Assembly: GCA_973895155.1 (NCBI GenBank)
Contig: OZ316891.1
Coordinates: forward strand, 20,596,169 to 20,660,168
DNA length: 64,000 nucleotides
From: Marsupella aquatica
Lineage: Eukaryota > Plantae > Marchantiophyta
Direction of reading: 5' to 3'
A program made the position numbers and the translations under genes. The notes beneath the pieces are model-generated. The model was not told where the DNA came from and did not search any database. It worked only from the letters and a program-made list of their open reading frames with translations. Shown here piece after piece: positions 13,730-31,678 of this stretch. The stretch's first letter is position 1, and every line of letters begins with the position of its first letter.

Positions 13730-15100
13730 GAAAGGGCTCAGCTTTTTTACTTTCCAATTTTAAGTGGGACAACGAGCCTGATTACCTAGAGACGAAGACA
13801 GAAAAAAATCTTGCAAAACAGAGATATTGTTGTTCATGTTTGTCTCTACCCCTCGGACAGGAACGATGACTGGAGGTGCGTAAGCCGAAGCCGAGGGCGT
13901 CGGGTTCGAATTCTTTTTCACCCTCCCTACTATTTTGTCTTTAATGAGAGTCACTGTTAGTCTTTATTCAATGTCAGTTTTATTGACCTTTGCTCCCATC
14001 CCTTTATTTTGGCCCATCTCTTACTTTTTGGTTTTGTTCTATTGAGAGTTGTCCATCTTTACTTTTTAGTTTTGTTCTATTGAGAGTTAGAGTCTAGAGG
14101 CTGCACTCTCTTTATTAGAACTATTTATTTTTTCTGCAAAGAATGGGGGTTTTACAAGAATTTGGGACACAAAAAATATATTTTTTCACCCGATGCAAAA
14201 CTGAGGTCCATTACAAACACCGAGGCTAAAATGCCTGAGCCAAGCATGTGTCATGTGTGGAGAAAAGAAACACAAGACCCTGAATAAGGGTTGGTCCATC
14301 CCCCTTAAGAGGGCATATTCACATAAGCAAAAAAATGGATACACAAAGGGCCCACTAATGTTAGGTATTTACTCTTAGGTCTAGAGTTGCTATGTTACCT
14401 CTATGAGTGTAACCACAATCAGGTGTTTAGTTTAAGATTAGATGTGCAACTAATACATTCCTTAAGAGAAGTTAGTTAATGAGTGGAATTTAGGCAAGTA
14501 ACGTTGTTCAACTAGGAAATGACTTTGATAAGTAATGAGTTTGTCAAATTGTACCTCCATGTTCATGTAAAGTGAAGTCTAGCCTGGTCTGACATTTGAA
14601 TGGCTACCATTGCATCTCAGACATAGAGATTTTTACAGGCAGGCCTATGAGCGATCTAGTATCTCTGGTTTTGATTATAAAGATTAATCCAACATTCAGT
14701 GTCCACACTTTGTGCTCCCAAAAGTTTCTGAGCAGCTACCTCCAACAATCACTCACCCAACTTTGACAATGAGTATCAGGTTGATTGTTTGAGTTCTAGG
14801 AAAACTGCTTGGCAAGATCTTTATGATGAGTCTAGTGTAGTCAAATTTCACTGAGAATTGACAGACCTACAAATCTTCTAAAGAATGATGTCTCTAGTTT
14901 TCTTGTGACATTTCACTAGTCGGAGTCATATGTAATATGTGAGTGCAAAAGAGGGTTTTGCAGATATCCATCCGGGTTGCTAAAGTATGACAGACTATCC
15001 CAACATTTTCACAATCATGGAGGTCTATCTAGGCATCAATTTTCTAAAAATGCACAACTTAGTGAAAAAATTCAAAAGTTTATCAGGTAAAATGTGAACT

Positions 15101-15176
15101 AGCTAGCTTTGGTTAGCTGGCCAGGGGATGAACCTAAACCAGAGAAATCCCAGGTTCAATCCCCCCTCCACGCGCA
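15101..15176 (+). mobile_element. Possible tRNA-derived SINE head, interrupted downstream by the copia insertion
   Basis: A-box-like tagctttggttagc (15104) and B-box-like ggttcaatccc (15153-15163) at tRNA-like spacing. No convincing cloverleaf. Confidence 0.35.
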
Positions 15177-15282
15177 AGGGGTGTGGAGGGTATGTGTGTG
15201 TATGTGTGAGTGCGGTAAACTGGTGGGAATCCTGGTTTCTCCTTAGCCCCAGGCTAGTTTGCTTTAGGGCTGACCCTGGTTC

Positions 15283-15320
15283 TGTTGAGCATAGACGACA
15301 TTCGTAACGGCAAGCCCATG
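15283..15320 (-). repeat. Inverted copy of the last 38 bp (U5) of the copia LTR, forming a terminal inverted repeat
   Basis: tgttgagcatagacgacattcgtaacggcaagcccatg is the reverse complement of 30807-30844 with 1 mismatch. Confidence 0.95.
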
Positions 15321-15329
15321 CTATCAGAG

Positions 15330-15341
15330 TGGTATCAGAGC
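15330..15341 (+). promoter_or_regulatory. Ectopic tRNA-iMet primer binding site (copy 1)
   Basis: (ag)TGGTATCAGAGC directly abutting the break in gag. Confidence 0.9.
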
Positions 15342-15775
15342 TGCTTGATGATGTGCGGCTTGAGATATAGCATCACTGCGTTGACAACAATCACCTGCTC
15401 CTGTCTCCACTGTCTCACAGAAATCTCCTCCTCTCCATCATACTGCTCTCGCGATGAAAGCAGATGAGCTAAGCCCATGGCCCAAAGGACACCCTTCACT
15501 TGCTTCTCCCACAGCAAGTAATCAGTACGGCCATCGTACTTCTCCACCTCAAAGTTCACTCGGACTCCAAATCTAGCCATCTCCCTCTTCTTCCCCACTA
15601 CCAACAACTCTGGTAGTAGTACAGCTTCCTCCACTGCACGCCGCACCGGTGATCTTACCGGTGTCACTAGTTCCTCCTCAAACGGTAGCAGCTCTTCCTC
15701 AGACTCTCTGTCTGACCGTCGCGATCCTGAAGCTCCATCGACGCCAATTCTTCCAGTATCCTCCGAGTCACTCAT
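15342..15775 (-). pseudogene. Copia gag, N-terminal piece
   Basis: MSDSED...NFEVEKYDGRTDYLLWEKQVKGVL...MLYLKPHIIKQL, a typical copia gag start, cut off at the PBS copy. Confidence 0.85.
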
Positions 15776-17526
15776 ATGAAACAATCACGAAAAAATGTTT
15801 TTTTTCAAAACTTCTCATAAAACTCAAAAATCAACACCGCCGCGTACCCCACGAAGCTAGGAGTCCAATACTGAAAGCCGAAATCAAAATCAAAATTTGA
15901 CGGAAAAGTTATTCAAATTTTGGTCGGGGTGGGTAAAACCTTGGGAAACTCCCCCGTTTTGACCACCTCGGAGAATAACCAAAATACCCAATACAACCCG
16001 TCGTCGGAATCGCAATGCGATTGGTGCGCCGCGTTGCCAACTTCAATGGCTACGTCCTTGTCGAAAAAGAACCAAAAAAGTTATCGTTCGGCGGACAGAA
16101 TCTTTGTTGGACGGCCGAAAAACAGCTCTTTGTTTTTTGGGAATATTCACGCATAGTCTGACAGGTCTCATAGGGGGCTGTTCCCCCTGTCGGAGCGGTT
16201 AAAACAGAGGGCGGCAGGTCCTGGCACCAAGTAAAACAAGAGGAAGCGAAGAGGAGGAAAAAGAGCCAAAAACAGGCCCTAAAGGGATGCAAAGCGCTTT
16301 AAATCCAAAAAATACGAGTATAAAAAGGCGGGCCAGGGGGTGTACAGGGCGTCGAGGTGGGGGCCGGGAGTAAAATACGTCTGCGTACGCAGCCAGAGAC
16401 GGGGTCCCGGGAGCGTACCGTCACCATGCGCTGTGGAGGGGCACCGACAGAAGGCAGGCGCGAGGTGGGAGAACCGGGGGCACAAGGCGAAGGCAGGGCC
16501 GGCCGACGGAGGGAGTCCCCCGGCTTATGCAGGCAGGTGGAGCGCGAGGCGGTCGGCTGGCAGCCGGGCGCAAAACGGTGTTAAGGGGGGGGGGCGAGGG
16601 CATGGCCTGGGTGACCGACGAGCGGGGAGGGTATGGTCGGGGCGCGCGCCGGTCGGCACTGCGGACCCCGCCGTTATAAATGGGGTGCGGGGAGGGGGGG
16701 AGGGATACAAACACAAGGGGGGTGCGGGGGTGTGTATACACACGAATATAACCCTTTAAACCCCCCTATAAAGGCAAAAAAACTCCCCCGGGATAAGTGA
16801 AAGAAAAACTCACCTAAAAAGCCGTTGTTTGATCCAAAGAAAGTGAACGCCGCCGATGGTAAATATTTCCGAATTTCACCGGCACAATCTGCAGCTCCAG
16901 CAGAGTAAACAATTTCCGTCGCGTTGCCTTCACTCCGCGTCAAGTGCCAATCCCGGGTGTCACACCATTCTAGGTAGTGTTAGAGTATATCGTACTATCT
17001 AGATCCATATGTTTGGTATATGTGCTATATGAGCCGATAAGGTTCTGTCAGGTTTGTGTGAGAGGGTACTTCTCACTTGTGAGGCATTGAAAGGTCATCT
17101 TTCAATGTTGAGCCTAGGAGAGAGATGAGCTTGAGTGTGGCTATGGTGGCTGGGCGCTTCGCTTGTGTAACGTGGATTCCTTGAGTAGTGCAAGCTAGGT
17201 GCATTGGCTTGACATACGTGTGTGATCGGATCGGTGCGGGATCAATGGGGTATTGTTGACCGGGATCGTTGTGCCGATTGTATTGAGATTACATTGAAAG
17301 ATCAGGAGCTTCAAACTCTGTTGTGTGGACAAAAGCTCAGTCTGAGTTTGTTGTTGACGATTTGCGGTAGATCAAATCGATTGGAGCTGTTGTTTTGATC
17401 TGTGGTACCTCGGATCGTGGAGTGGACCGCTGGTATTTTGATTTGCTCTAATCGGTGTTGAGAAGTTTGTGCCTGATCTGTGCTGCCATTCAACGGACAG
17501 TATGCTGCTGTTCGCGTTTTTGTGAA

Positions 17527-17692
17527 GTAGATCGGGCCTGCATCATCATCGTATGTAGATCTGTTGGGCCGATTTGCTGTTTTCGCAAGGGAAACAGCCA
17601 CAGATGTTGGTAGATCAGGCCTGCATCATCATCGTATGCAAATCTGTTGGGCCGATCTGCTATTTTTGCAAGGAAAATAGCTGCGGATGTTG
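17527..17692. repeat. Tandem duplication, 2 x 83 bp, in the gypsy leader
   Basis: gtagatc.ggcctgcatcatcatcgtatg...gatgttg at 17527 and 17610. Confidence 0.9.
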
Positions 17693-18188
17693 TTGAATCG
17701 CACAACGACACCGCCTGTGTAGCGATTTCCAGAACTTGCACGCCAACCTCTGCGTTTTGTTGAAGAAATAGAACTTTGAATGTTGCTATTTTGGTAGCGG
17801 ATGCGGGCTGCTGCTGATCAGAGCGCGGAGGCACTATCGCCTGCGTGTTTGTGAAGGGGAACGACTCGGGATTGTTGCCCATTTTGCGAGGGCTGGATTG
17901 CGGATTCGCTATGACAGGACAGTGCGTCGACGCGCTGCATTTCTGTGAAGGAAACTCGAGGCCGAAGTGTGGACGTTGTTGAATCTGGAAGTTGGATCCG
18001 GCGTAGCGGGCGTGAAGGGCTCACTTTGTGGCTCATCTCGGCATTTAGAGGCTTCGAGGCAACTCGGGACGAGGGGCGTGAGGGCGAAGCAGGAGCGGGC
18101 GGGCCAGCAAGCCAACTTGCTAGTACGTGAGGAGAATTGCAAGTGCTGTCATTTTGGAGTGGCAGATTTGGTGCATAATGACAAGTGA

Positions 18189-18256
18189 GAGGTCACCCAT
18201 CCCAAAGCTATTCCTCCCCTCATGCGCTTAACTAGCAAGTTCTTATGTGGTGCATT
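18189..18256 (-). promoter_or_regulatory. 5S rRNA-derived internal Pol III promoter core (box A to box C), not a full 5S gene
   Basis: + strand gaggtcacccatcc-N22-cgcttaact-N4-agttct-N5-ggtgcatt matches the reverse complement of plant 5S rRNA (GAGGTCACCCATCC-N22-CGCTTAACT-N4-AGTTCT-N10-GGTGCATT). The 5S ends are absent. Confidence 0.85.
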
Positions 18257-21200
18257 GTACATGCTTCCTTCCACACTTGGTGTCCAAGGAATGAGGCCCT
18301 AGGGGTTTTATGCACTTTTGAATTCATCTAGATACTCTATTTTAGCTAGTTTGCGATGGATTCTTGAATATTTGACGCAGGATTCTTGAGGCCTATTATG
18401 AAGGCCCTATATTGAACTATATGCACATTATTTTCATGTATTTCTGATTGATTGGTGTGGAGAGTTGTGGTAAATCCTCTTCTTGTTGTTGGATCCTCTC
18501 CACACATGCTTCCTGTTTATGCGCCATGTTGGTTTGGCGTGGACGCTTGATTCTATAGGAGTGATTCGGGTTTGCAACCGGACATTCTAGTTGTGCTACG
18601 TATTTCTCTCCTGGTGATGTTGGAGTGATGCCCAACACACCATGGTGAGTGCTTGTGTTGTTGACAAGGACAGATTGCCCTTAGGGTTAGCATATAGATT
18701 AGGTTAGATTGGTCACCACGGATTCTTCTGGTGCTGCTGGGTTACCCGATGGACGACGGACCGGTTTCACTTGGAGTGGGGCGCAGTTTTGGCCAACAAC
18801 ATTGGTAGCAGTCAGCAGCACAACTTCAAACAGTGATTCTGACGAGGACTCTGTGAGCAGTTCTCCTTGTCATCAGGTGATTGCACCTTTGTTGTGGGAT
18901 ATGGACAAGATGTACGGGGCTACAAAGGGCCCATGACGATACTCTGGTGCAGTTGGCACAATTGATCTGGATGACTTCATCCAGGAGTTTGATACGTGGT
19001 GCGATATGCAGACATTGCGTAACGCCATGTTGTTTACCCCTTTCATGGCATGGAAAGGATTATTCCAGCATTTGGAGGGGCCACCCATGGATGACTACCA
19101 TGAGTTTTGGAAGGCTCATTTGGTTGAGATTGAGGCATGGAGGCAGCATTGGTCGCCTAATTATGTGTCCATCACCTATTGCACTAGTGCGGCTGCCCAA
19201 CCCATTGCCACAGCTGTTGCTTCTTCTAGCAGCACTAGCCAGAGTGGCACACCATCCACCAGTAGCACTCCAGCAGCATCCATCGCTACTCCTACCGGTG
19301 TGATTGTGACAGGAATTGGAGTTGCGCCAACATTTAACCCTATGGTGGAATTCTTTGAGGTACTGAAGCAGACCTATCAGGGTGTGAGAACTGATAAGTT
19401 GAAGGGTCTCCAGGAGTTCCAGCGTAAGACTGGAGAGAGTCTACGTGAGGCATACACTCGTATGCGCAGATTGATCACTATCACCAAGGGAGTGACAGAG
19501 GCTCAGGCAATCCAGTTTTGGTATGCGATTCTGGACAAAGAATTGCGACGCAGAGTGAGAGATGTCACTCTACTTAGGGATGCAGATCCCACATTAGCAG
19601 TTGTTTTTACCCTTTCTCAGCGCATTCAGCTCAATATGGTGAATGAGAAGGTGGTGATTTCTGGATTTGCCAAGGAAGCACCAAAGGCTGCATCTACATC
19701 CACACCATAACCTACTGCACGGAAGAGCCAGAGGGAGAAGCCTGCTGGACGAGAGTCTACCAGCCAGAGACCTGTGCCCTCTTATGCTGGACAGCAGTCA
19801 AGATGTTGGACCTGTGGTGGGGATCATGCACAGAGATATTGTCCAGATCATAGAGGATCAGGGGGAGCATCAGCGCCTGATCAATGACAGTGTGATCATT
19901 GTGGAGCTCCTGGACACACCAAGGATAGGTGTTTCTCACTCCACCCTGAGTTACGGAGGGGAGGATCCCGTACACATGATCAGGGAAGAGGAGGAGGAGG
20001 TAGAGGTGGTGGACGTGGTCGTGGTCGTGGCATGCCACATGCAGGGAGACAGGAAGGTGACGCTGCCCCTACTATAACCATAAATCCAAATGATGCTAAG
20101 ATTGCTCAATTGGAGCAACAACTAGCTGCCATGGCTAGTTCCCAGGTGAGACCTACTTCTAGTGATGGGGCATCTACATCCTATGGACCTTCCACATCCC
20201 ATGGTCCTTCCACATCTTATGGAGCTGATGGAGACCTTGCCACCATGGGATTCATGTGTGGCACTGCACATATTGATGCATCAGCAGCGTTGACACGTGG
20301 GGCAGCCAAAGCTCTTGAGCCCCGAGGAGCAGTAGTGGAGTTAGATCCATAGAGGGAGGATGCACGTTGGCAGACAAAGCTTCCTCAGTCTTTTACATTG
20401 TCAGAGATAGTTCAGACTGTCTCTATGAACCCGGTTCGGACAAACCCTAATGTGGGTAAGTCGGCAGAATCAGGTAGTGATGCAGTAGGGATGACAGGTA
20501 CCCTGCTGGGGGCGGCTACTGCCATGGTACGCACCCCATTATTTTCAGCGACAGACATGCTGAACTTGGGAGTTGGTCTTGCAAAAGTGTTCAGATTGGC
20601 AGCTATACTCTGTGAGGACACTCCAGTGGTTGCTTCCCATGCAGAAGCAGCTTGCAGTGTTGAAGCAGTGAAATCCATGCCACCTACTACTACTAGTGAG
20701 ACATGGCATGTAGCAACAGCAAGGTTGGTGGATTTACCAGCACGCCCTGCATTTGAGAGGACTAGGTTTAAACCTAGTGTTGTGTCATTGGATAATCGAA
20801 GTGGTATCTTCCGATTAGTTGGGCCTTCTTGGGCAGTATACCAGCCAGAGAGAGTGTTACTGGATACTAGTGCTCAGCCCTTGATGTTGGGTAAGTCTGC
20901 CATACGTGGGTTGGGATTGCATCCAGAGGATTTGGAGGATTGTCCCTTTCCCATTCAGACTTCATTGGGGGGACCTACACCTACACAGCACATTACCAGG
21001 AGACCTCTTGATTTGAGGATTCAGGAAGGTCATACCACAGATAACTCACAAATACAGGCGCGAGCTATTCTGACTAAGGCAGAGTCATATGATGTGTTGG
21101 TGGGATGTACAGTGCTCTACCCCATGGGATTTATTCTTGATTTTTTGGAGGAATCAGTGTCATATAGACCTGATTGGCAGTCAGGAGATGCTTGATTGAG

Positions 21201-21567
21201 CAAATTGCCAATGAGATTTAGTGGACCTATGGGAGGCCCTAAATCCACACCATTGTCTTTGGCAGCATTCAGTGGGCTAATTGTTGGACCTGATGATTTG
21301 ATTGAGGGTAATGTGCATGCAGCAGATGTTCCACCATTGGAGGAGACTCATGAGGAGCACATCATGCAGGGATTCCCTGTTGGCAGTGTTGTGCCACCAG
21401 TGTGGGGCATTGCATAGACCTTGCCACAGGAAGCAGCACGATTGGTACATGATGCATGGCGTCATGCTTTTACACCATAGTCAGGAGCAGAGCAGTCTCT
21501 TGCAGATGGACCGGTGACTCTTTCACCATTGGATACCACTCCTATTGCTTGGCAGTATCCACCGGAG

Positions 21568-22490
21568 GGTATTTGTTTGTTGGATCGTTTTGGTGGGATT
21601 AGCACTAGATTGGCTGTTGTTCTTTAGGCAGGAATTCTTGTGCGTTGTTATTTGTATGTGGAGACAGATGAGACAACACGGAGGATCTCATTGCAACATG
21701 TGGCTATGTTGGTGGATAGATATCCACAGTTGCTGCTAGTGGATGCTGTTCGTGGTTATCAGCATGCACTACCTACTGATATTTCATTACTAGGGGCGGA
21801 TCATCTGCATCGTGTTGGCCCCATTGATTTGGTGATTGCTGGTTGGCCATGTTAGGGCCAATCTAGAGCTGGCATTGGGCATGGACTTCATGATCCACGC
21901 TCAACACTATTTTGGGAGATGTTACGGGTGCTGCGTCATCTCCAGCTACATCAGACACAATCTCCAACATACATTTTGGAGAATGTGCCATTGTTAGGTG
22001 ATGATCGCAGTCGGATTGTTGCCAGTGTTCACCAGGTGAGGTCTTGGATTGGACCTGCTGTGTTATTGGATGCTACACATGTGGGTTCTCGTGCACATCG
22101 TCCACGCTTGTGGTGGACCAATTTGATCCCATGTGAGGTGCTGAAGCGCGCATTTGACAGCATTCCACGCTCACCAGCCTTAGTGGTGGATGATATTTTG
22201 GATCCAGAGCATCGTGCACAGGGTGTGACCCAACCTGATAGACCTCCATTGGCAATGGTCAATCCACTCTTGTAAGCCATTCTGCTTCTTATGCATTCAG
22301 AGCAGGTGGCCCTGGACTTGTGTGGGACACAGCTCTCCAGCAGTTAGTGGAACCTACTGCTGATGAGAGAGAGCGTGCTATGGGATTTTTGACTAGCACC
22401 ACTGCAGTTGCCTCTGTGTTAGAGGGTTTGCGACGCTAGGTTCTTGGTCAAGCAATGGATCTGAATTGTTTAACTTGGATTATCAGCTTG
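21568..22490 (+). pseudogene. C5 cytosine DNA methyltransferase domain within pol (between AP and RT)
   Basis: Motif I LLDRFGGIST (~21580), motif IV GPIDLVIAGWPC*G (PC 21847-21852), motif VI ILENV (ENV 21979), motif VIII RAHRPRLWWTN (22090), motifs IX/X ERERAMGF...RR*VLGQAMD (~22365-22460), in canonical order. Confidence 0.92.
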
Positions 22491-25400
22491 GGAGTAGCTG
22501 AACAGTTGCGGATGCGCTCTGCTGAAATTACTGATTGTCCCTTGGTGAGCTTGCGGTCCACTGAGACAGTATTAACCACAGCTGGGGGCGAGCAGACAGT
22601 CCATGGACCTATGGCAGGATTGGCCAAGGCTGGACAGATTGTTGAGCAGGAAGGGACTGCTCAATCTACTACTAAATAGCAATCATCGACTATCTTTTCT
22701 ACCCTACAAAGATATATTAGGGATTTGGTGGAGAGTTGGGAACCACAGCTTGGCCCTAAGTTGACAGGGGAGGAGAGACGTCGCATGCATCGATTCCTGA
22801 AGAGTTACTGGAATTGTTTTGCATTTAGCATGAAGGATTTGGGGACATTAAAGGGTCCTGGTATTCAGATTGAATTGGCTAGTAATGCGCCAATCTTTCG
22901 TAGGCCATACCGTTACAGTGACATGGAGAGAGCTTTGATTCAAAGCAGAACTCAAGATTTGTTGGAGGCTGGATTGGTGGAGATTTCATATGGGGAGTAT
23001 GCATCTGCCACAGTGATGCCAGCCAAGAAGGATGTGCATGGCAATTACACAGATAGGCGCATGTGTGGTGATTACATACCCATTAATCGCCAGACAAATC
23101 TGATAGATATGCCATGCCCACACTTGAGGAGATATTTGATGCTGTGGGGCATGCAAAGGTTTTCAGTTCATTGGATCTGAGGGCAGGGTATCATCAGCTT
23201 CCAATTAGGCATGCTGACAGGTCCAAGACAACATTCTAGGGGATTAATTCTTATGGCAAAGATCGTTTGTATCAGTGGTTATTCTTACCATTTGGGTTGA
23301 AGAATGCACCAGCTGAGTTCCAGAGAGTCATGGATCGAATCCTTGCAGGTTTGGATTTTGTCAGATGTTATATTGATGATATTTTGGTCTATTCTTCTAC
23401 TATGGAAGAACATCAGCAGCACTTGCAAATTGTGTTGGAGAGATTGAGAGCACATGGGTTGAAGCTCCATCCTAGCAAGTGTAAGTTCTTCCAAGACCAG
23501 ATTGAGTATTTGGGCCACACCATATACCCAGGGGGATTGGGTGTACAGCAGACTAAAGTGGAGGCCATTACACAGATTCCTTGTCCTACTGATGTGAGTT
23601 TGTGCATTCTTGGGATTTGCGAGCTACTACAGGAGGTATGTTAAAGGATTTAGCCAGCTTGCTAAACCTTTGACCATACTCACTAAGTTGGATCATGAAT
23701 GGATTTGGGGTGATGACCAGGAGCATGCCTTTCAGGAGTTGAAGCAAAGGTTGGCATCATCCCCTGTTTTGATAAGACCCATTTCAGGCAGACCATTTTA
23801 GCTACACACTGATTGGAGTGGAGTAGGACTTGGAGCAGTGCTGACTCAAAAGGATGATGAGGGGAATGAGTTTGTTGTGGCTTATGCCAGTAGATCAAAC
23901 AATTCAGCAGAGGCTAAGTATAGCTCTTATGAGGGAGAGTGTTTGGCAGCAGTGTGGGCTGTTGCACATTTTTGTTGCTACTTGTTTGATAACCCTTTCA
24001 CCTTGATCACTGATCATCAGCCTCTTAAGTGGTTAATGGAGTCTGACAAGCTTACAGGGAAGCTTGCACGATGGGCATTGTTGTTACAGGAGTATGATTT
24101 CCAGGTGGTGCATAGGCCTGGAAAAGTGAACTTGGATGCAAATGGATTAAGCCGGAATCCATGTACCAGTCAGCAGGATGAGACTGGAGCCAGATGGCAT
24201 GATGAGTCAGATAAGGAGATGGTGCCAGGATGGCATGCATCTGCCTTTCTTTGTTGGGTGCCAACATATAGTGGATCTGTTGACTCTACCTCATTGGATG
24301 GAGTGGATGAGGAGTCTTTAGATGTGGATGTTGGTGAGGTAACTTTTGGATAGCAAGATATTCACAATGATGTGAGAGTGTTGGAATATCTGCGCAGTGG
24401 TTCTATTGTTGGCAGTGTTGATGCCAAAGAACGTGACAGGGTTCTACATAGAGCCAAGAGGTTTCGATGGGAGGGAAACCATCTTTTGAGAGTACTGCAT
24501 GATGGTAGGGTGTTGGTGGTACCAAAACCATCACAACGAGTACATTTGGTACGACATGCACACGAGGAGTTGGGGCACTTTGGTGTGAAGCGCACTTATA
24601 GCTTGTTGCAGACACAGTATTGGTGGCGTCGTATGCACACTCATGTCCAGCAGTTGATAGCTAAGTGTGTGGTATGTGATAGAGTGAGAGCATCATTTAA
24701 TGCTCCCACTCCCCAGTTGCACCCGTTGCCGATCATGGGTTTGGGATATCGTTGGAGTTTGGATTTTTCTGGTCCATTACCTCTTACCCAACGTCATAAT
24801 CGGTATGTTTTGGTCATGGTGGAGCACTTCTCCAAGTGGATTGAGCTAGTGGCATTGCCAGATAAAGCCAGTGGAGGAGTTGCTGCTACATTTTTGGATC
24901 GTGTACTCAGTCATTTTGGAGCACCAGCTGAGGTGTTGACTGATCAGGGAACTGAGTTCCGTGGAGAGTTTGAGAGTTTGTATGAGTCACAAGCTCTGAT
25001 TGATCATCGTACTACCTCTTGTGATCATCCTAAGGCAAATGGATTAGCCGAGAGAGTTGTGCAAACTGTAAAGAGAGGATTGCGTAAGTATGGCTTGCAG
25101 GTTGGTCATCTGGGAGATTGGGATCTCCAGCTACCTTGGTTAGCTATGGGCTACCGTTTTAGTCGGCAAGCATAACTTGCATCATTTTCACCTTACTTTT
25201 TGCTCTATGGTAGAGAGCCAGATTTGCTAGCAGCTATTCGTCATGATGCTGCACCAGTTGTGAACTTGGATGATCCTGATGTTTGGGTCAAGGTGTGTTC
25301 AGAGAGAGCACGGGTATTTCAGAGAGTGATGCCCATGGCTTTTGACAACGTTGCCATTGCCCAACATCGTGATACTTTGAGGTATGCCACTATTCGTGGA

Positions 25401-25661
25401 GGAGGTTATCGTGCAAGCATTCGATGATTTCATCCTAGTGATTATGTTTATTTGCAGCAGACAACACCCACAACACTTGATGTGACCACAGGCCGGACAA
25501 TCTTACGTGTGCGTGAAGTGTTGCCTTCTGGTGTCCTGATGTTGGAGGGACGCGATGGTATGGTTTGGAAGGATCAAGTGCGCAACTGTGCACCATGTCA
25601 CCTTCCCAACATTGATGGTATAGTAGATCCAAGCTTGGCACATGTTCGTGCTGGCTTGAAA

Positions 25662-25799
25662 TGTATGTTGTGTGGATCTGCTCAGGGAGCAGCTACTATG
25701 TTGATTTGTGATAAGTATTCTAGAGAATGGCACATGTCATGTTTGACACCACCATTGCAGGTGATTCCTAGTGGATCATGGTTGTGTCCTCAGTGTCGG
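25662..25799 (+). other. PHD finger at the integrase C-terminus
   Basis: CMLC-x11-CDK(Y)-x4-HMSC-LTPPLQVIPSGSWLCPQC, a C4HC3 pattern with one Cys apparently mutated (TGT>TAT). Confidence 0.9.
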
Positions 25800-26635
25800 T
25801 GAAGCCGACTAGTTATCATTTGTGTTCTCTTGGCAGATATGGATTGCAGGTAGATGATCGATGAGGCTCACTTGCACCCGGCCTCCTGATCTTCACACCT
25901 AAAAAGGTGTATATCAACCTTGTAGAACTCATGGCTAGCTAGAGTTAGGGGACCTTACTCCCAGCTAGAGGGGCGATTGTGGGTTTTGGACATGTGTGGA
26001 CATGAGTTCCACTTGTATTCCATTCTCTTGTGTTTGTGATATGGCAGTGTGACTATGTTTGGATGTATGTGACAAGCGATGTATGTTGTGTAGCGATGTG
26101 TATGCGCACGACATGGGCTCAAAACAACCGTCTCGCCACGATCAAACCGTTGAGCCGTAGCACTTCGCGTTTCTTCCACCGAGTAGGACGTCACGAAGAG
26201 AAACCCAGTTCAGATGAGAACAAGCTCTATAGCTTGTGAAAAAACCTGAACGCCTCCTTCACTCGTCACGACGCACTCGATAACAACTCGACAACAATTC
26301 AGCTACCGAAATGACCAGCTCGCTTCAAACTTCAACTTAAGCTATAATATGCAATCCCTCCCGCACCGCACGGCTCACACCGTTGAAAAAAACAATCTCT
26401 CGTCTCTCCCCCCAAAAGCCGTCGAACACGAATAAAACCTGAACGACGCAAACTTCAATTCCTCCGCACCACGGATACCAATCAGCGAGTTCTAACCACC
26501 GTTAGAAAGCCCTCTCACTAACTTATTCGCTCAGCCACACATATTTGAGTTTCATGCGACAAAACTCGAAATATACCATCGACAACGAACGCTAGAAAAA
26601 CCTGTCACAAAAAAACCTCGTCACCTCCCAGGCAT

Positions 26636-26647
26636 GCTCTGATACCA
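26636..26647 (-). promoter_or_regulatory. tRNA-iMet PBS (copy 2, the native PBS followed by the copia leader)
   Basis: Minus strand tCAAG-TGGTATCAGAGC-atgcc, followed by leader sequence running toward gag-N. Confidence 0.9.
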
Positions 26648-27305
26648 CTTGATACTACGTTGAGAGCATAACCTTGACATCACAATATGTCATCATCATC
26701 GAGTAAATCTACCTCATGCGAGCTCGATGCCGCGTTAGCAGAGGCAGTAGGGACCTTTACTCGACAATCCCTTTTCATGTGGCCAGGCTTGCCACAATTC
26801 CAACATGCAAGAGGCTTCCTCTCTTGCAATTTCCCTCTGGATTTAGATCTCCCCTATTATGTAGATCTAAACCTGTTCTGCCCATTTGTGCGCTGCGCTG
26901 CTCTTCCCCTATTCACATTGAGCGTAGTGCCAGAAGAAGATGCTGTCTGTGATTGACCCAGCTTTTTCTGAGCATCATCAGACAGTAATGAGCTCATCAC
27001 CTCATTATACGAAATGGACTTCAGATCTCTATACAAGAACACCTATTTCAAGCCCTAATATGATGGCAGTAAGGAGCTTAGCAAAAGCAAGGCCTTATCC
27101 TCATCTTCAACTCATTTTCCCAGGTTTGACAGATCCACCGGTAGACTGTCAAATTCATCCAGGTGATCCTGCATCTTGCTCCCTTCCTTGAGCCTGAGAC
27201 TCATCAAGAGAGACTTCTTGTATAGCCGGTCTAACGCATCTTCCCGGTAGCACTTCTCTCTTAGAGCCTTGAATAGTGACGCGCAATCTACATAATCATC
27301 TAGCT
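26648..27305 (-). pseudogene. Copia gag, C-terminal piece
   Basis: QLDDYVDCASLFKALREK...LRLKEGSKMQDHLDEF...EDEDKALLLLSSL...GRSKSRGK...CWNCGKPGHMKRDC...YALNVVSS. Confidence 0.9.
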
Positions 27306-27317
27306 GCTCTGATACCA
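27306..27317 (-). promoter_or_regulatory. Ectopic tRNA-iMet PBS (copy 3)
   Basis: Minus strand tCAAG-TGGTATCAGAGC-agctagat, between + strand protease and - strand gag-C. Confidence 0.9.
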
Positions 27318-27320
27318 CTT

Positions 27321-30293
27321 GACTGGATTCTAGATAGTGCATGTACTTTTCACATTTGCTCTAGGAGAGATTGTTTCAGTTCTTACACGGTTTCCAACGG
27401 GTCAGTGTTGATGGGAAATGGAATCCCATGTCAAGTTGTTGGACTTGGATCTGTAAGATTTCAGATGTTTGATGGTGCTATGAGAACGTTGAGGAATGTG
27501 AGACATATTCCCAGCATGATGAAAAATCTTATTTCATTTGGAGTTTTAGAAGCAAATGGCCATCAGTGGAGTTCTGCTAACGGTGTCCTTCAGGTTTCAA
27601 TTGGTACTAAAGTTGTATTGAAGGAAAAAAGACATTACAATCTATACGTTTTGGAGGGCAGTGTAGTCTGTGATGAAGTCAATATAACCTTATCTCATGA
27701 AGAGACGGCCCGGCTGTGGAGCCCCTACTCCCTCACATTCTGGACGGTTATACTATGTTACGTTCATAGACAATTACTCAAGATATGTGTGGATATACTT
27801 TCTACACAATAAGTCTGATGTTTTTGCCACTTTTAAGAAGTGGAAAGCCAAGTAGAGAATCAGACTGGTAATAAGGTGAGATATCTTCGATCGGATAACG
27901 GCGGTGAATACATTTCCAGGGAATTTGGAACGTATTGTAAAGAGTAGGGGATTACCCGCCATCTCACAACAAGTTATACTCCTCAGCAGAATGGTGTTTC
28001 TGAGAGACTCAACTAAACACTATTGGACCGCTCGAGGAGTATGTTGAGTCAATCATGCTTACCACATGAGTTTTGGGCTGAAGCTATCAACACTATAGCT
28101 TATTTAGTAAATTTTTCTCCATCCAGTTCTATTGGATTCAAGACGCCATTTGAAATGAGGTACGGGCATCCAGCAGATTACTCACATCTGAGGATTTTTG
28201 GATGTGATGCTTATGTGCTTACACCTTTCCAGCTTCGATCCAAGCTGGAGTCCAAATCGAAGAAGTACATTTTCCTTGGCTATCAGAAAGGTGTGAAGGG
28301 TTATAGGTTATGGGATCCAGTAACCTGTAAACTAATTGTCAATAGAGATGTGTCCTTCAAAGAATCCAGATCATCAAAGGAGGGGGAAATTTCTCAGGAC
28401 TCCCATACTGACAAGGGGAAATCTCCCATCTCGAACCGGGTTGAGGGGGAGATTAGTCATGATGCTGTTCATGACAGGAGAGATGGAGAAGCTCCGGGCT
28501 TGGAGCTGGTTCCTATGATGGAACAAGAGGAGCAGATTGTTGCTGGGGTACCTCAAATTCAACCAGCAGCAGCAGATCAGCCTAAGTCATCTACTAGAAA
28601 AACTTCCAGTTGTTCTACTAGAGCTCCTACCAGGTATGGTCAATGGGCAGACTCATCTAAGCTAGATGATATTGACATTGCATCTGATGATGATGACATG
28701 ACTTTGATCTTGGAAGAAGGAGAGTCTTCTTCGTATAGTGAGGCTTGTGCTTCAGAACATAAGGATGAGTGGAATGCAGCAATGCAGAGGGAATTGCAAT
28801 CTTTGAGTAACAACAAGACATGAGAGCTGGTGGAGCTTCCAAGAGGTCAGCAAGTGGTGGACAGCAAATGAATTTACAAGTTGAAGGACAGTCCTTCAGA
28901 GGGTGGAGATAAGATCTACAAGACAAGGCTTGTTGCCAAGGGATTCACTCAGGAGAAAGGAGTGGATTACAATGAGGTCTTTTCACCGGTGGCTAAGTAT
29001 TCCACAATTCAGATCTTGTGTCAACTTGTTGTGTTTTTTGGTCTGGTGATGGATCAGATGGATGTTGTTACTGCTTTTCTCTATGGCAACTTGGAAGAGT
29101 TGATCTTCATGAGACAGCCACTAGGCTTTATGAAGAAGGGCCAAGAGAACTTAGTTTGCAGATTGCTTAAGTCCTTGTATGGATTGAAGCAGTCTCCCAG
29201 ATAGTGGAACAAGCGGTTTGATGATTTCATGCTTGCTCAAGGTTTTACAAGGATGGTGTATGATCCTTGTGTGTATACGAAATCAGTCAAGAATGATGTG
29301 TTTGGTTTCATCATTCTGGTTATTTATGTGGATGACATGCTGATTGTGGCTAAAGATCAATGTGAGGTTGACAGTCTCAAGGCGAACTTGAGTGTTGAAT
29401 TCAGGATGAAGGATCTTGGTAAGGCCAAGAGGATCTTAGGGATGGAGATTTTTAGGAACTCTGAGACTGGACAGTTGTGCTTGAGTCAAGGCCAGTATGC
29501 GAGGAAAGTACTTGCACGATTCAACATGGAGAACTGTAAGCCAGTGAGTATTCCTTTAGCATCACATTTCAAGTTATCATCGGCTTTCTCTCCTACGGAT
29601 GCTGTGGAGAAAGGTCTGATGGCTAAGATTCCTTATGAGAAGGCAGTAGACAGTCTGATGTATTTGATGACTTGTACTAGGCCTGACTTGGCCCTAGCGA
29701 TGGGCAAGGTTAGCAGATTCATGTCAAATCCAGGGAAGGTACATTGGGAAGTTGTGAAATGGATTCTCAGGTATCTCAAGGGTACACAGGACTATGGATT
29801 ACTATTTGATAACATATCAGATAGAACGTTAGTTGGCTATGTAGATTCTGACTATGAGGGCTATCTGGATAGAAGGAGGTCTACAACTGGGTTTGTATAC
29901 ACTCTTGGAGGAGGATGTATCAGTTAGAAATCTACCTTGCAGAAGTGCATATCTCAGTCTACTACAGAAGCAGAGTATGTTGCAGCAGCAGAAGCAGCAA
30001 AGGAAGCAATTTGGTTGGACAAGTTGATCGTGGAGATGGGTTTAGAGCATGGCAAAATGACTCTAAAGTGTGATAGTCAGAGTGCTCTTCACTTGGCTGC
30101 TAACCAGGTGATGGATAGTAGGGTGAAGCACATTGATATCAGGTACCATTTTATCAGGCAAACAGTGTCTGATAAAACTTTTGAGCTAGTCAAGATTGAT
30201 GGAAAGCTCAATCCCGTTGATGCCTTTACCAAAGTGATTCCTTTGGAGAGTTTCTCAAGACACCGTGCTACTTTGCAGGTTTTGCAGTTGTAG
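27321..30293 (+). pseudogene. Copia pol (PR-INT-RT-RNase H), disrupted
   Basis: [77 protein letters not shown] (~29325), STTEAEY, KHIDIRYHF. The integrase HHCC region appears deleted near 27720. Confidence 0.95.
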
Positions 30294-30500
30294 TGCAAGT
30301 AGAGTTATTTAGCAATGTGTGACTATTTGTATATGGATTACTCATTCCTGTTAGGTTACGGCTTAGTTCTAGTTAACCCTTAGTTAACCCTTGTGGTTTT
30401 TAGGGGGAGACCTGGTTTGGTGATTGTCTAGAACTTCCCGCTGAGGATTCCATATGGTAGCATTTAGTCTAGTCCCCAAGACAAGAGTCAAGGGGGAGTT

Positions 30501-30844
30501 TGTTAGATATTGCTCTAGTCTTGTGACTCATGAGCTAACCACAGTTAGTATAACTTGGGTTAAGACTTAGCTAATGTTAGCGGTTATGCTGGTGTGCATA
30601 TAGCCAGGGCTGATGCCAGACCCTGGTGAAACTTAGGCTCATTGTTACGGAGCTAGTTGAGAGATAGGGAGAGCTTGTGCTGTGGATATTTGGTATGGCC
30701 GGTTGACCTAGAGTGCAGTAAAGTTCTTGTGTGTTCCCGTGGACATAGTCTCATGTGGAGGTGAACCACGTATCTCTCTATGTCGACTATTGTGCGTTTG
30801 ATGGTTCATGAGCTTGCCGTTACGAATGTCGTCTATGCTCAACA
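30501..30844 (+). repeat. Copia 3' LTR (344 bp)
   Basis: TGTTAG...CAACA directly after the PPT, with copia U5-type motif cccgtggacatag...gaaccacgta. Confidence 0.9.
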
Positions 30845-30875
30845 GGTTCACCCCTCTTCCCTCCTGGTCTGGTCC

Positions 30876-30994
30876 TGTAGGATCCCTGGGTATTTTCTCC
30901 CCTTGTGGGCTACCCCAAAGTTTAAAGTCTATTTTGTAGGATCCTGGTATTTTCTCCCCTTGTGGGCTACCCCAAAGTTTAAAGTCTATTTTGT
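30876..30994. repeat. Tandem duplication, ~58 bp x 2
   Basis: tgtaggatcc..ggtattttctccccttgtgggctaccccaaagtttaaagtctatttt repeated. Confidence 0.9.
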
Positions 30995-31678
30995 TTGGAT
31001 GGGTCTATTTTAGGCTTTCAAGGAAGAAAAAAAAGAGAGGAAAAACGGGGGAAAAAAGTTGCATATGGGTTTACTTTCGACTTTCAAAGGAAAAATAAAA
31101 TGTGAACTGGACAAAGAGAGAGTGTGAAGTACAAACGAATCTTTCAAAGAGATCCCCAGAAAATCATTAGTGCCAAAGCCACCAGAAATTGGAATCTGTG
31201 AAATCTCGAGTCCGCATATCCAACAATCTGGGCAGTACGTTGTGTGCTTTCTCGTGCTGATCAGTCCAATCGGCTACTCCATATTACTCAAGAGTCCACC
31301 AGATTTCCAGCAGCTCATCAATCGATCGATCGATTGATCAGGAGTATGTCATTCGACTATCGACGAGCTCATTACTATGAATCAGCTTTTCGCCGGCTGT
31401 CAAGCAATCAGCAGTTTCTCTGCTCTCAATCACTCAAGGACCTCTCAAAATGAAGCATCCCGTGTGTTCAGAAGAGGCAGGTCTACGTACATTAGCTATA
31501 TGCCCAGATATTAATTCTTGGGGGGGGGAGGAACGTGACCGAGAAGGAAACGTGTTCACTGTGTCGGTCGATTAGTTGGGTTTCCATTCAATACCATTCT
31601 CTTTGGCTGGGAGAACCGAAGAAATTCTTGAAGTAGGCTAAAGAAGGGATCTGTCGAAGTGGTGGGGCAAAGAAGGGC

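Follow-up and report, generated by a model that had tools for sequence, protein, structure and literature searches.

A dead Ty1/copia insertion with U5 ends at both tips, probably derived from a cDNA rearranged before integration

The present study examined a 64,000-nucleotide stretch of Marsupella aquatica DNA (contig OZ316891.1, positions 20,596,169 to 20,660,168; hereafter, the window), which harbors a rearranged long terminal repeat (LTR) retrotransposon. We regard this locus as a single old and dead Ty1/copia insertion, both outer tips of which are U5 ends of the LTR under one 5-bp target-site duplication. It most likely arose in one integrase reaction from a cDNA that had already been scrambled during reverse transcription, and we assign this reading a probability of roughly 0.55. 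The insertion probably preserves an accident of copying, of which natural traces are rare, and does not represent a novel type of element.

Results and Discussion

Tips and target site of the insertion

Only one full LTR is present (344 bp, TGTTAG...CTCAACA; Table 1). A blastn-short search of the window at word size 7 recovered the LTR itself, a 38-bp arm at the left end of the element, and chance matches of 17 bases or fewer, and did not detect a second LTR or a U3 remnant. The arm is the inverted end of the LTR: positions 15283-15320 are identical to the reverse complement of 30807-30844 at 37 out of 38 bases, with the single mismatch at 15316. A repeat search reported the same pair as 39 nt at 97%, and blastn within the window gave an E value of 1.2e-11. 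GGTTC stands directly outside the element on both sides, as expected of the 5-bp target-site duplication of Ty1/copia elements; the chance of matching a fixed 5-mer is 1 in 1024. A preliminary description of this DNA had noted the sole LTR, the left end as the reverse complement of its last 38 bp, and the exact GGTTC duplication, and all three were recovered in the present analysis, exceeding chance by a wide margin.

Each tip corresponds exactly to a U5 terminus (inward ...CA-3'), and the two lie beneath a single duplication of the staggered-cut type; their first four bases are, however, common to U3. TGTT is at the same time the first four bases of the LTR and the reverse complement of its last four (TGTTAG versus TGTTGAG). 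The two direct LTRs of a Ty1/copia element are replaced here by one LTR and 38 inverted bp. Its genes, LTR tips, and duplication, together with a putative primer-binding site (PBS) and a purine tract, nevertheless place the element in Ty1/copia.

The preliminary description had treated the insertion as a 15.6-kb unit. It is indeed flanked as one unit; however, 9.9 kb of it is foreign nested DNA. Besides this nested block, two features had escaped that description: the 5' third of the element is inverted as two separate pieces, and the TGTT at the left tip is ambiguous.

Joints and copies of the primer-binding site

On the plus strand, the order of parts is GGTTC; the 38 bp of inverted U5; CTATCAG; AGTGGTATCAGAGC; the inverted N-terminal half of gag and the leader, the latter interrupted by the nested 9.9 kb; GCTCTGATACCACT; TGAT; the inverted linker, zinc knuckle, and C-terminal half of gag; GCTCTGATACCACT again; and pol, which leads through the purine tract and the LTR to the second GGTTC. 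Compared with an ordinary element, three successive pieces have each been inverted without leaving their position: the U5 tip, the segment from the PBS to mid-gag, and that between mid-gag and the gag-pol border.

The same 14-mer, consisting of AG and a PBS for tRNA-Met, is present at every one of the three joints (J1 next to the inverted U5 end, J3 next to the element's own PBS, and J2 at the start of pol). Its PBS part, the 12-mer TGGTATCAGAGC, occurs three times exactly in the 64 kb, at 15330 (plus), 26636 (minus), and 27306 (minus), and all three occurrences are at joints. The chance expectation was 0.38, and three copies were reached in 0 out of 100 shuffles. A tRNA gene was not found within the window. 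TGGTATCAGAGC is described as a copia PBS that matches tRNA-Met and is often accompanied by an 'ag' spacer (PMC3852365). None of the copies in this element adjoins an LTR; a purine tract is present.

Relative to the element's own PBS (26636-26649), the extra copy at J1 is inverted and that at J2 is direct. The two halves of gag overlap by 1 to 7 bases (AGCTGCT), depending on the assignment of AGC at J1 and GCT at J2, and no base of gag has been lost. At J3, the linker end comes after the element's own PBS and AG, with 0-2 bases of U5 in between.

We noted that the linker contains TATGCTCTCAAC at 26655-26672, just before the gag-pol break, which is a near copy of the U5 end TATGCTCAACA, and that its last bases, GTAGTATC, resemble the start of the PBS, GTGGTATC (7/8). 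This likeness could have helped mis-annealing at the break.

Interior parts of the element

A Pfam scan of 148 stop-to-stop open reading frames (ORFs) of at least 50 residues between 15000 and 31000 identified copia pol on the plus strand, copia gag on the minus strand, and a gypsy-type set on the plus strand at 20.3-25.8 kb. The pol matches were Pol_BBD (27273-27809), an rve fragment (27688-27852), SH3_retrovirus (28017-28820), and RVT_2 (28872-29924); the gag matches were Retrotran_gag_2 (27115-27360) and zf-CCHC (26683-26853). Together with the gag relatives described below, they display the Ty1/copia order: gag with a zinc knuckle, protease, integrase before reverse transcriptase, and RNase H.

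Two gag proteins from a public collection, P0001 (295 aa, 79% identical) and P0002, served as guides. In tblastn, residues 3 to approximately 80 of P0001 aligned to 15577>15345 and residues 81-271, approximately, to 27302>26755, both on the minus strand. The cut falls between ...HIIKQL and DDY..., a position at which P0001 and P0002 are uninterrupted.

The start of pol was located by a HMMER search of the whole library with the ORF at 27273-27809, which yielded 150 relatives, mostly fragments. The match started at query residues 13-20 (approximately position 27321) in 135 of the 150, at residues 5-9 in 7, at residue 28 or later in 8, and at residues 1-4 in none. No full-length pol relatives were found by a search with the protease ORF restricted to longer proteins. 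In the relatives P0011 and P0005, ...VNVV...W(I/M)LDSG is continuous. Since such relatives read across in one run, the linker end (...ALNVVS, minus strand) and the pol start (DWILDSA, plus strand) are neighbors in ordinary elements.

Several further observations were made on these genes. The gag frame ends at a TGA stop, where P0001 and P0002 also terminate, and the linker and pol start are in frame if the border is read as ...NVVSDWILDS. This family may express pol through stop read-through, which is unusual for copia. Pol has decayed: it contains several stops and is broken internally in two or more places, as indicated by loose ends at 27719/20 and 27848/49. These breaks lie in the integrase region, where contigs of the family part from the window past 27719 and to either side of 27848/27849; the family sequence past 27719 resembles the HxRLGH motif of gag_pre-integrs.

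Table 1. Features of the insertion (positions in the window; J1, J2, and J3 are the inner joints)
Feature	Positions	Strand	Evidence or remark
Left copy of target-site duplication, GGTTC	15278..15282		
Inverted U5 end (last 38 bp of LTR); outer tip TG... abuts duplication	15283..15320	-	
J1 filler, 7 bases, CTATCAG	15321..15327		Partly repeats adjacent PBS (TATCAGAG twice)
J1 extra copy of AG + PBS, AGTGGTATCAGAGC	15328..15341	+	Last 3 bases (AGC) overlap gag
gag N-terminal half, ATG (15775-15773) to ...HIIKQL	15342..15775	-	tblastn of P0001 and P0002; ORF
Leader, gag-adjacent part	15776..16200	-	Family-level depth (21355 vs. 315 in next bin, X2); right border approximate
G-rich low-copy stretch with long G runs, between copia leader and gypsy-type element	16201..16957		X2 depth 315; exact single-copy contig 16452-16691
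Nested gypsy-type element: protease-like, C5 DNA methylase fragment, reverse transcriptase, RNase H, integrase, PHD	16958..26113	+	Pfam; Atlas leads
Leader, PBS-adjacent part	26114..26635	-	Family-level depth; ordinary copies continue through PBS into 5' LTR
Element's own PBS + AG, normal leader context	26636..26649	-	
J3, TGAT; gag-pol linker end where 5' LTR is expected	26650..26653		8 X3 contigs continue as LTR after 26651
gag C-terminal half (DDY... from 27300), zinc knuckle, gag stop (26680-26682), linker	26654..27305	-	tblastn; Pfam
J2, second extra copy of PBS + AG	27306..27319	-	First 3 bases (GCT) overlap gag
pol: Pol_BBD/protease, integrase remnant, SH3, RVT_2, RNase H region; several stops, at least 2 inner breaks	27320..30483	+	Pfam; homology start ~27321
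Polypurine tract region, AAGGGGGAG + TT	30484..30500	+	
Sole LTR, 344 bp, TGTTAG...CTCAACA	30501..30844	+	
Right copy of target-site duplication, GGTTC	30845..30849		

Ordinary copies and junctions in public reads

Five public runs cover the region. X2 and X3 (organism B) contain 0.86 and 0.84, respectively, of the sampled words, and X1, X4, and X5 (organism A) contain 0.12-0.21. Contigs were aligned to 14500-31500 at 92% identity or higher, and a finer alignment was made on 15000-15420. In X2, the depth was 20-30 in the flanks (single-copy), 12,000-80,000 in the copia parts (15283 to approximately 16200 and approximately 26114 to 30844), approximately 5,000 in the gypsy-type parts, 315 at 16201-16767, and 214-753 at 17335-18468; the last two are low-copy stretches. 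These depths correspond to approximately a thousand copies of the copia family, as an order of magnitude.

That ordinary copies of the family are collinear is evident from contigs of four public runs and from the two gag relatives. The joint 27300>15341, at which the C-terminal half of gag connects to the N-terminal half, occurs in other copies. Similarly, the sequence of the C-terminal half precedes 15339-15344 in 10 contigs of X2 (6+1+3), 15 of X4 (7+8), and 8 of X5 (7+1); none was noted for X3 among the rows listed. The order PBS, two bases, and 5' LTR follows from the joint 26650>15285, which has a single intervening base, and from 8 X3 contigs whose loose end past 26651 reads as the inverted end of the LTR. 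The loose end before 26654 (4 X1 contigs) resembles the inverted start of pol.

Contigs continuing past 15320 into the LTR numbered 46, 48, 68, and 57 in X2, X3, X4, and X5, respectively. In the same order, 40, 35, 67, and 54 contigs ended at 15283 with unrelated flanks (agreement of 0.36-0.39). Since many contigs end there with unrelated preceding sequences, 15283 is a true terminus of the family.

The left junction between the host and element is covered by a 131-base X2 contig, which spans 15179-15309 without a difference at a depth of 20.7 (flank, 20.5). Regarding the empty site, neither a joint 15282>30850 nor a matching loose end was present among the joints listed, which is uninformative either way, and a 27-base probe of the predicted empty site had no match within the window. 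Carriage of the insertion by organism A was considered based on the joint 15207>15283, which appeared in X4 and X5 at a single-copy-like depth. We did not count it because one side has 22 bases and 15148-15212 is a high-copy repeat. The joint 15249>15283 (X2 and X3; side of 29) was likewise not counted as evidence of carriage.

Origin of the insertion

The right arm of the insertion is the ordinary 3' part of the element (pol, purine tract, and LTR) on the plus strand. On the minus strand, the left arm represents this family's 5' part and begins with the outermost 38 bp of U5. In the reverse transcription of such elements, the outer tip is the first base made off the tRNA primer, and the U5/PBS border is the end of the RNA template after RNase H removes R-U5 as well as the point at which plus-strand strong-stop DNA terminates. 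The breakpoints that can be placed lie on these landmarks, once at the U5 tip and three times at the U5/PBS border, and the joints have overlaps of 1-7 bases, which supports a cDNA that was rearranged before integration. We infer that the plus strand reads as one strand of minus polarity, running backward within the pieces and forward between them, and assuming plus polarity from pol onward.

The preliminary description had proposed that the integrating substrate carried U5 at both ends, was rearranged before integration, and may have been tRNA-primed at both ends. This remains the best-supported reading because of the minus-oriented 5' part, the PBS copies at the inner joints, and the exact tips under one duplication; however, the TGTT overlap also allows a rearrangement after integration.

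With regard to the pathway, we only tentatively suggest that both genomic RNAs of one virus-like particle were tRNA-primed, that a minus strand which had not jumped walked along nicked RNA and fused 3'-to-3' with the other, and that the resulting U5/U5 cDNA integrated normally. In the most economical account, strong-stop DNA synthesis on one tRNA-primed minus strand would have stopped after 38 bases, without the usual first transfer. This strand would then have hopped from template end to template end on the nicked genomic RNA and re-copied the primer site twice. Every jump would have left a trace, be it an overlap of 1-7 bases, unexplained bases (one to a few), or a further copy of the primer site. 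Its 3' end would have paired with the 3' end of a second, ordinary minus strand halted at the gag-pol border. Mutual extension would have generated a duplex with tRNA-primed U5 at each tip and without a U3 end primed at the purine tract, and integrase, which needs the terminal bases only, would have joined both U5 ends 5 bp apart. Thereafter, the copy may have taken up the nested gypsy-type element and decayed through C-to-T changes and small deletions. Template switching is not the sole conceivable route: if fragments of the cDNA had instead undergone end-joining within the integration complex, the outcome would be the same.

Published observations are compatible with parts of this pathway. 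RNAs are packaged in pairs, and reverse transcriptase switches templates between both (PMC6894440). Ty1 integrase performs concerted full-site integration in vitro with U5-only or U3-only donors (PMC8487063). Rearranged retroviral cDNAs with asymmetric LTRs or inversions, which have been attributed to strand transfers, do integrate (PMC9278108).

Several points weigh against a cDNA origin. The pathway needs approximately five template switches. One of these leads to a second minus strand, where the overlap is approximately one base. The 7-base filler at J1 is not accounted for. Microhomology and short templated filler are also typical of cellular repair synthesis. The first four bases of the left tip fit U3 and U5 equally well, and the break at the gag-pol border is placed to approximately four bases. 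The support from reads is confined to the left junction and weak: the contig there extends 27 bases into the element, short of the 31 required, and the window may itself derive from the sample of X2. Furthermore, no empty site, which would indicate a single insertion event, appeared among the contig joints listed.

The strongest rival is unlikely in our view, although more probable than the others. It holds that an ordinary two-LTR copia insertion, flanked by GGTTC, later underwent a one-shot local chromosomal rearrangement through replication template switching or polymerase-theta-type end joining, in which three pieces were flipped, 306 bp of the 5' LTR were deleted, and the left joint fell within the common TGTT. 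The presence of TGTT both in TGTTAG, at the start of the LTR, and in TGTTGAG, at its inverted end, fits this proposal, since a repair joint within these bases would produce precisely the left junction observed. The overlaps of 1-7 bases at all joints and the fillers copied from less than 1 kb away before nesting also fit, as does the retention of the 5' parts as single copies in unchanged order, with the exception of the greater part of the 5' LTR. However, there is no reason for repair to place one break precisely at the LTR tip and three at the U5/PBS border, and a joint at the first base of the element with neither loss nor gain is rarely to be expected. Moreover, three in-place inversions with common breakpoints would have to constitute one complex event, and the window retains no remnant of U3 at word size 7.

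Another rival, which we consider improbable, assumes that two separate family copies, minus on the left and plus on the right, came to abut after deletions and that the GGTTC pair represents half-scars that match by chance. The family has approximately a thousand copies, nested insertions are common here, and matches of 1 in 1024 will arise somewhere when very many windows are scanned. On the other hand, this rival requires such a match together with zero host DNA between the copies and both outer tips intact. The gag halves fit exactly at one cut with an overlap of 1-7 bases, which points to one source molecule, and the copies of the primer site at the joints are left unexplained. Slightly less probable again is an assembly error at one or more of the inner joints, conceivable in a very abundant family, because the joints have filler bases of their own and small overlaps, unlike a plain switch between copies, and single-copy contigs are exact at 15179-15309, 16452-16691, 17580-17773, and 17856-18024.

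Three specific molecular routes were also considered and set aside. A simple snap-back hairpin of strong-stop DNA at base 38 predicts CTCAACA after CCCATG, where the window has CTATCAG. An attack by integrase at the gag cut would require, for TG...CA ends, an imperfect repeat of 8 bases instead of 5. The recombination of one circle and a palindrome at the 7-mer AGCTGCT fits the letters; it needs three unusual molecules and is not preferred.

Comparison with known systems

The element is similar to ordinary plant Ty1/copia elements in its order of gag, protease, integrase, reverse transcriptase, and RNase H, its TG...CA LTR, and its 5-bp duplication. It differs from them in having one LTR, an inverted U5 as the left tip, a 5' third inverted in two pieces, and three PBS copies. 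For copia families of Jatropha, the 12-mer TGGTATCAGAGC is described as the PBS, with the 'ag' spacer, and their purine tract is similar to that found here (AGGGGGAGAtt; PMC3852365).

Sabot and Schulman (2007; PMC1950507) ascribed complex LTR retrotransposon insertions to abnormal template switching. Their insertions and ours appear alike in that a rearranged daughter of reverse transcription was inserted as one unit. However, theirs are described as direct-orientation fusions of two parents sharing an LTR, in which a single duplication encloses three direct LTRs and two internal domains, whereas the present insertion has one LTR, one internal set, inverted parts, and U5 tips.

Copia autointegration yields deletion and inversion circles in Ty1 and SISYPHUS (PMC7197481; Garfinkel 2006 as cited there). 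The products resemble the present insertion in their inverted element portion and the integrase-type origin of the internal rearrangement. In contrast, according to that account, they are dead-end, non-chromosomal circles whose LTR tips have become attached to an internal target under a 5-bp inverted repeat. The present copy is integrated and has no joint from a tip to an inner site; J1, J2, and J3 join copies of the primer site, and the bases repeated at the gag cut are direct on the DNA.

The concerted integration of like ends in vitro (PMC8487063) has in common with our reading that two identical ends are paired and that the product is full-site. That work used oligonucleotides and a Ty1 integrase that prefers U3, whereas the present case would be a natural genomic event. 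Defective proviruses (PMC9278108) are also integrated errors of reverse transcription, which arose there through strand transfers between two packaged RNAs; however, they retain a U3 tip and a U5 tip, and the excerpts of that paper describe no case with U5 at both tips. A literature search returned no paper pairing inverted LTRs with a target-site duplication in retrotransposons, which is no proof of absence. Among the matches listed for concerted integration or integrase, the wording 'two U5 ends' or 'U5-U5' was likewise absent, with the same limit.

Significance of the insertion

In integration as usually described in textbooks, one tip is U3 and the other is U5, whereas the pairing of like tips has, to our knowledge, been observed mainly in vitro. 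A genomic fossil that combines exact U5 tips and a single duplication with a copy of the primer site at each inner joint shows which faulty cDNAs reach chromosomes, and its readable junctions provide material for working out how reverse transcription fails. Because they have a single LTR, such copies defeat annotation and dating methods that are based on LTR pairs. If two minus strands were indeed fused, the locus would be a natural record that copia integrase needs U5 tips only in vivo, and that minus strands alone are able to build an integration substrate. We do not expect the locus to have a function because the copy is dead and has no long inverted repeat.

Nested element and age of the insertion

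The foreign block of 9.9 kb in the copia leader consists mostly of a gypsy-type element, which is preceded by a G-rich low-copy stretch without a Pfam match (16201-16957). The protease-like ORF of the gypsy-type element was an Atlas lead (0.90). A fragment of a C5 DNA methylase lies between this ORF and reverse transcriptase, and a PHD finger follows integrase. The DNA_methylase match scored 22.8 bits in Pfam against a cut-off of 22, and 0.94 in Atlas, with 30 out of 30 matches in PF00145. Reading the methylase region as a single through-read frame was ruled out by stop codons, and intact ORFs were used. A tandem repeat of 83 bp (2 copies, 87% alike) is located at 17527-17692 in the low-copy 5' region of the element.

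An LTR pair was not found for the gypsy-type element by blastn within the window. Its termini, A (16958-17290) and B (25976-26113), are connected in other copies by the joints 17290>25976 (A>B) and 26113>16958 (B>A, two bases between), and behave as split direct repeats. Since the same joints occur in other copies, these odd ends are a family trait and give no sign that the locus was scrambled. The depth suggests a few hundred copies of this element. De Mendoza et al. (PMC5890265) described gypsy-type elements of Klebsormidium nitens with a Dnmt3 domain and a DIRS-like repeat structure, and the nested element resembles the available description of KnitGypsy-Dnmt3 in that paper, by description only. 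There is no clear duplication around the nested element, with CCGGG on the left and TGGGC on the right sharing GGG at most.

The window and the X2 contigs differ at 331 positions, at 199 of which the window has A/T and the contigs have G/C. This bias toward A/T is the decay expected of a methylated old copy.

The host DNA on both sides of the insertion is itself repetitive. The left flank contains a high-copy repeat of approximately 65 bp at 15148-15212, with an X2 depth of up to 7,900, and a 57-bp unit is repeated 2.1 times at 30876-30994, just to the right of the insertion.

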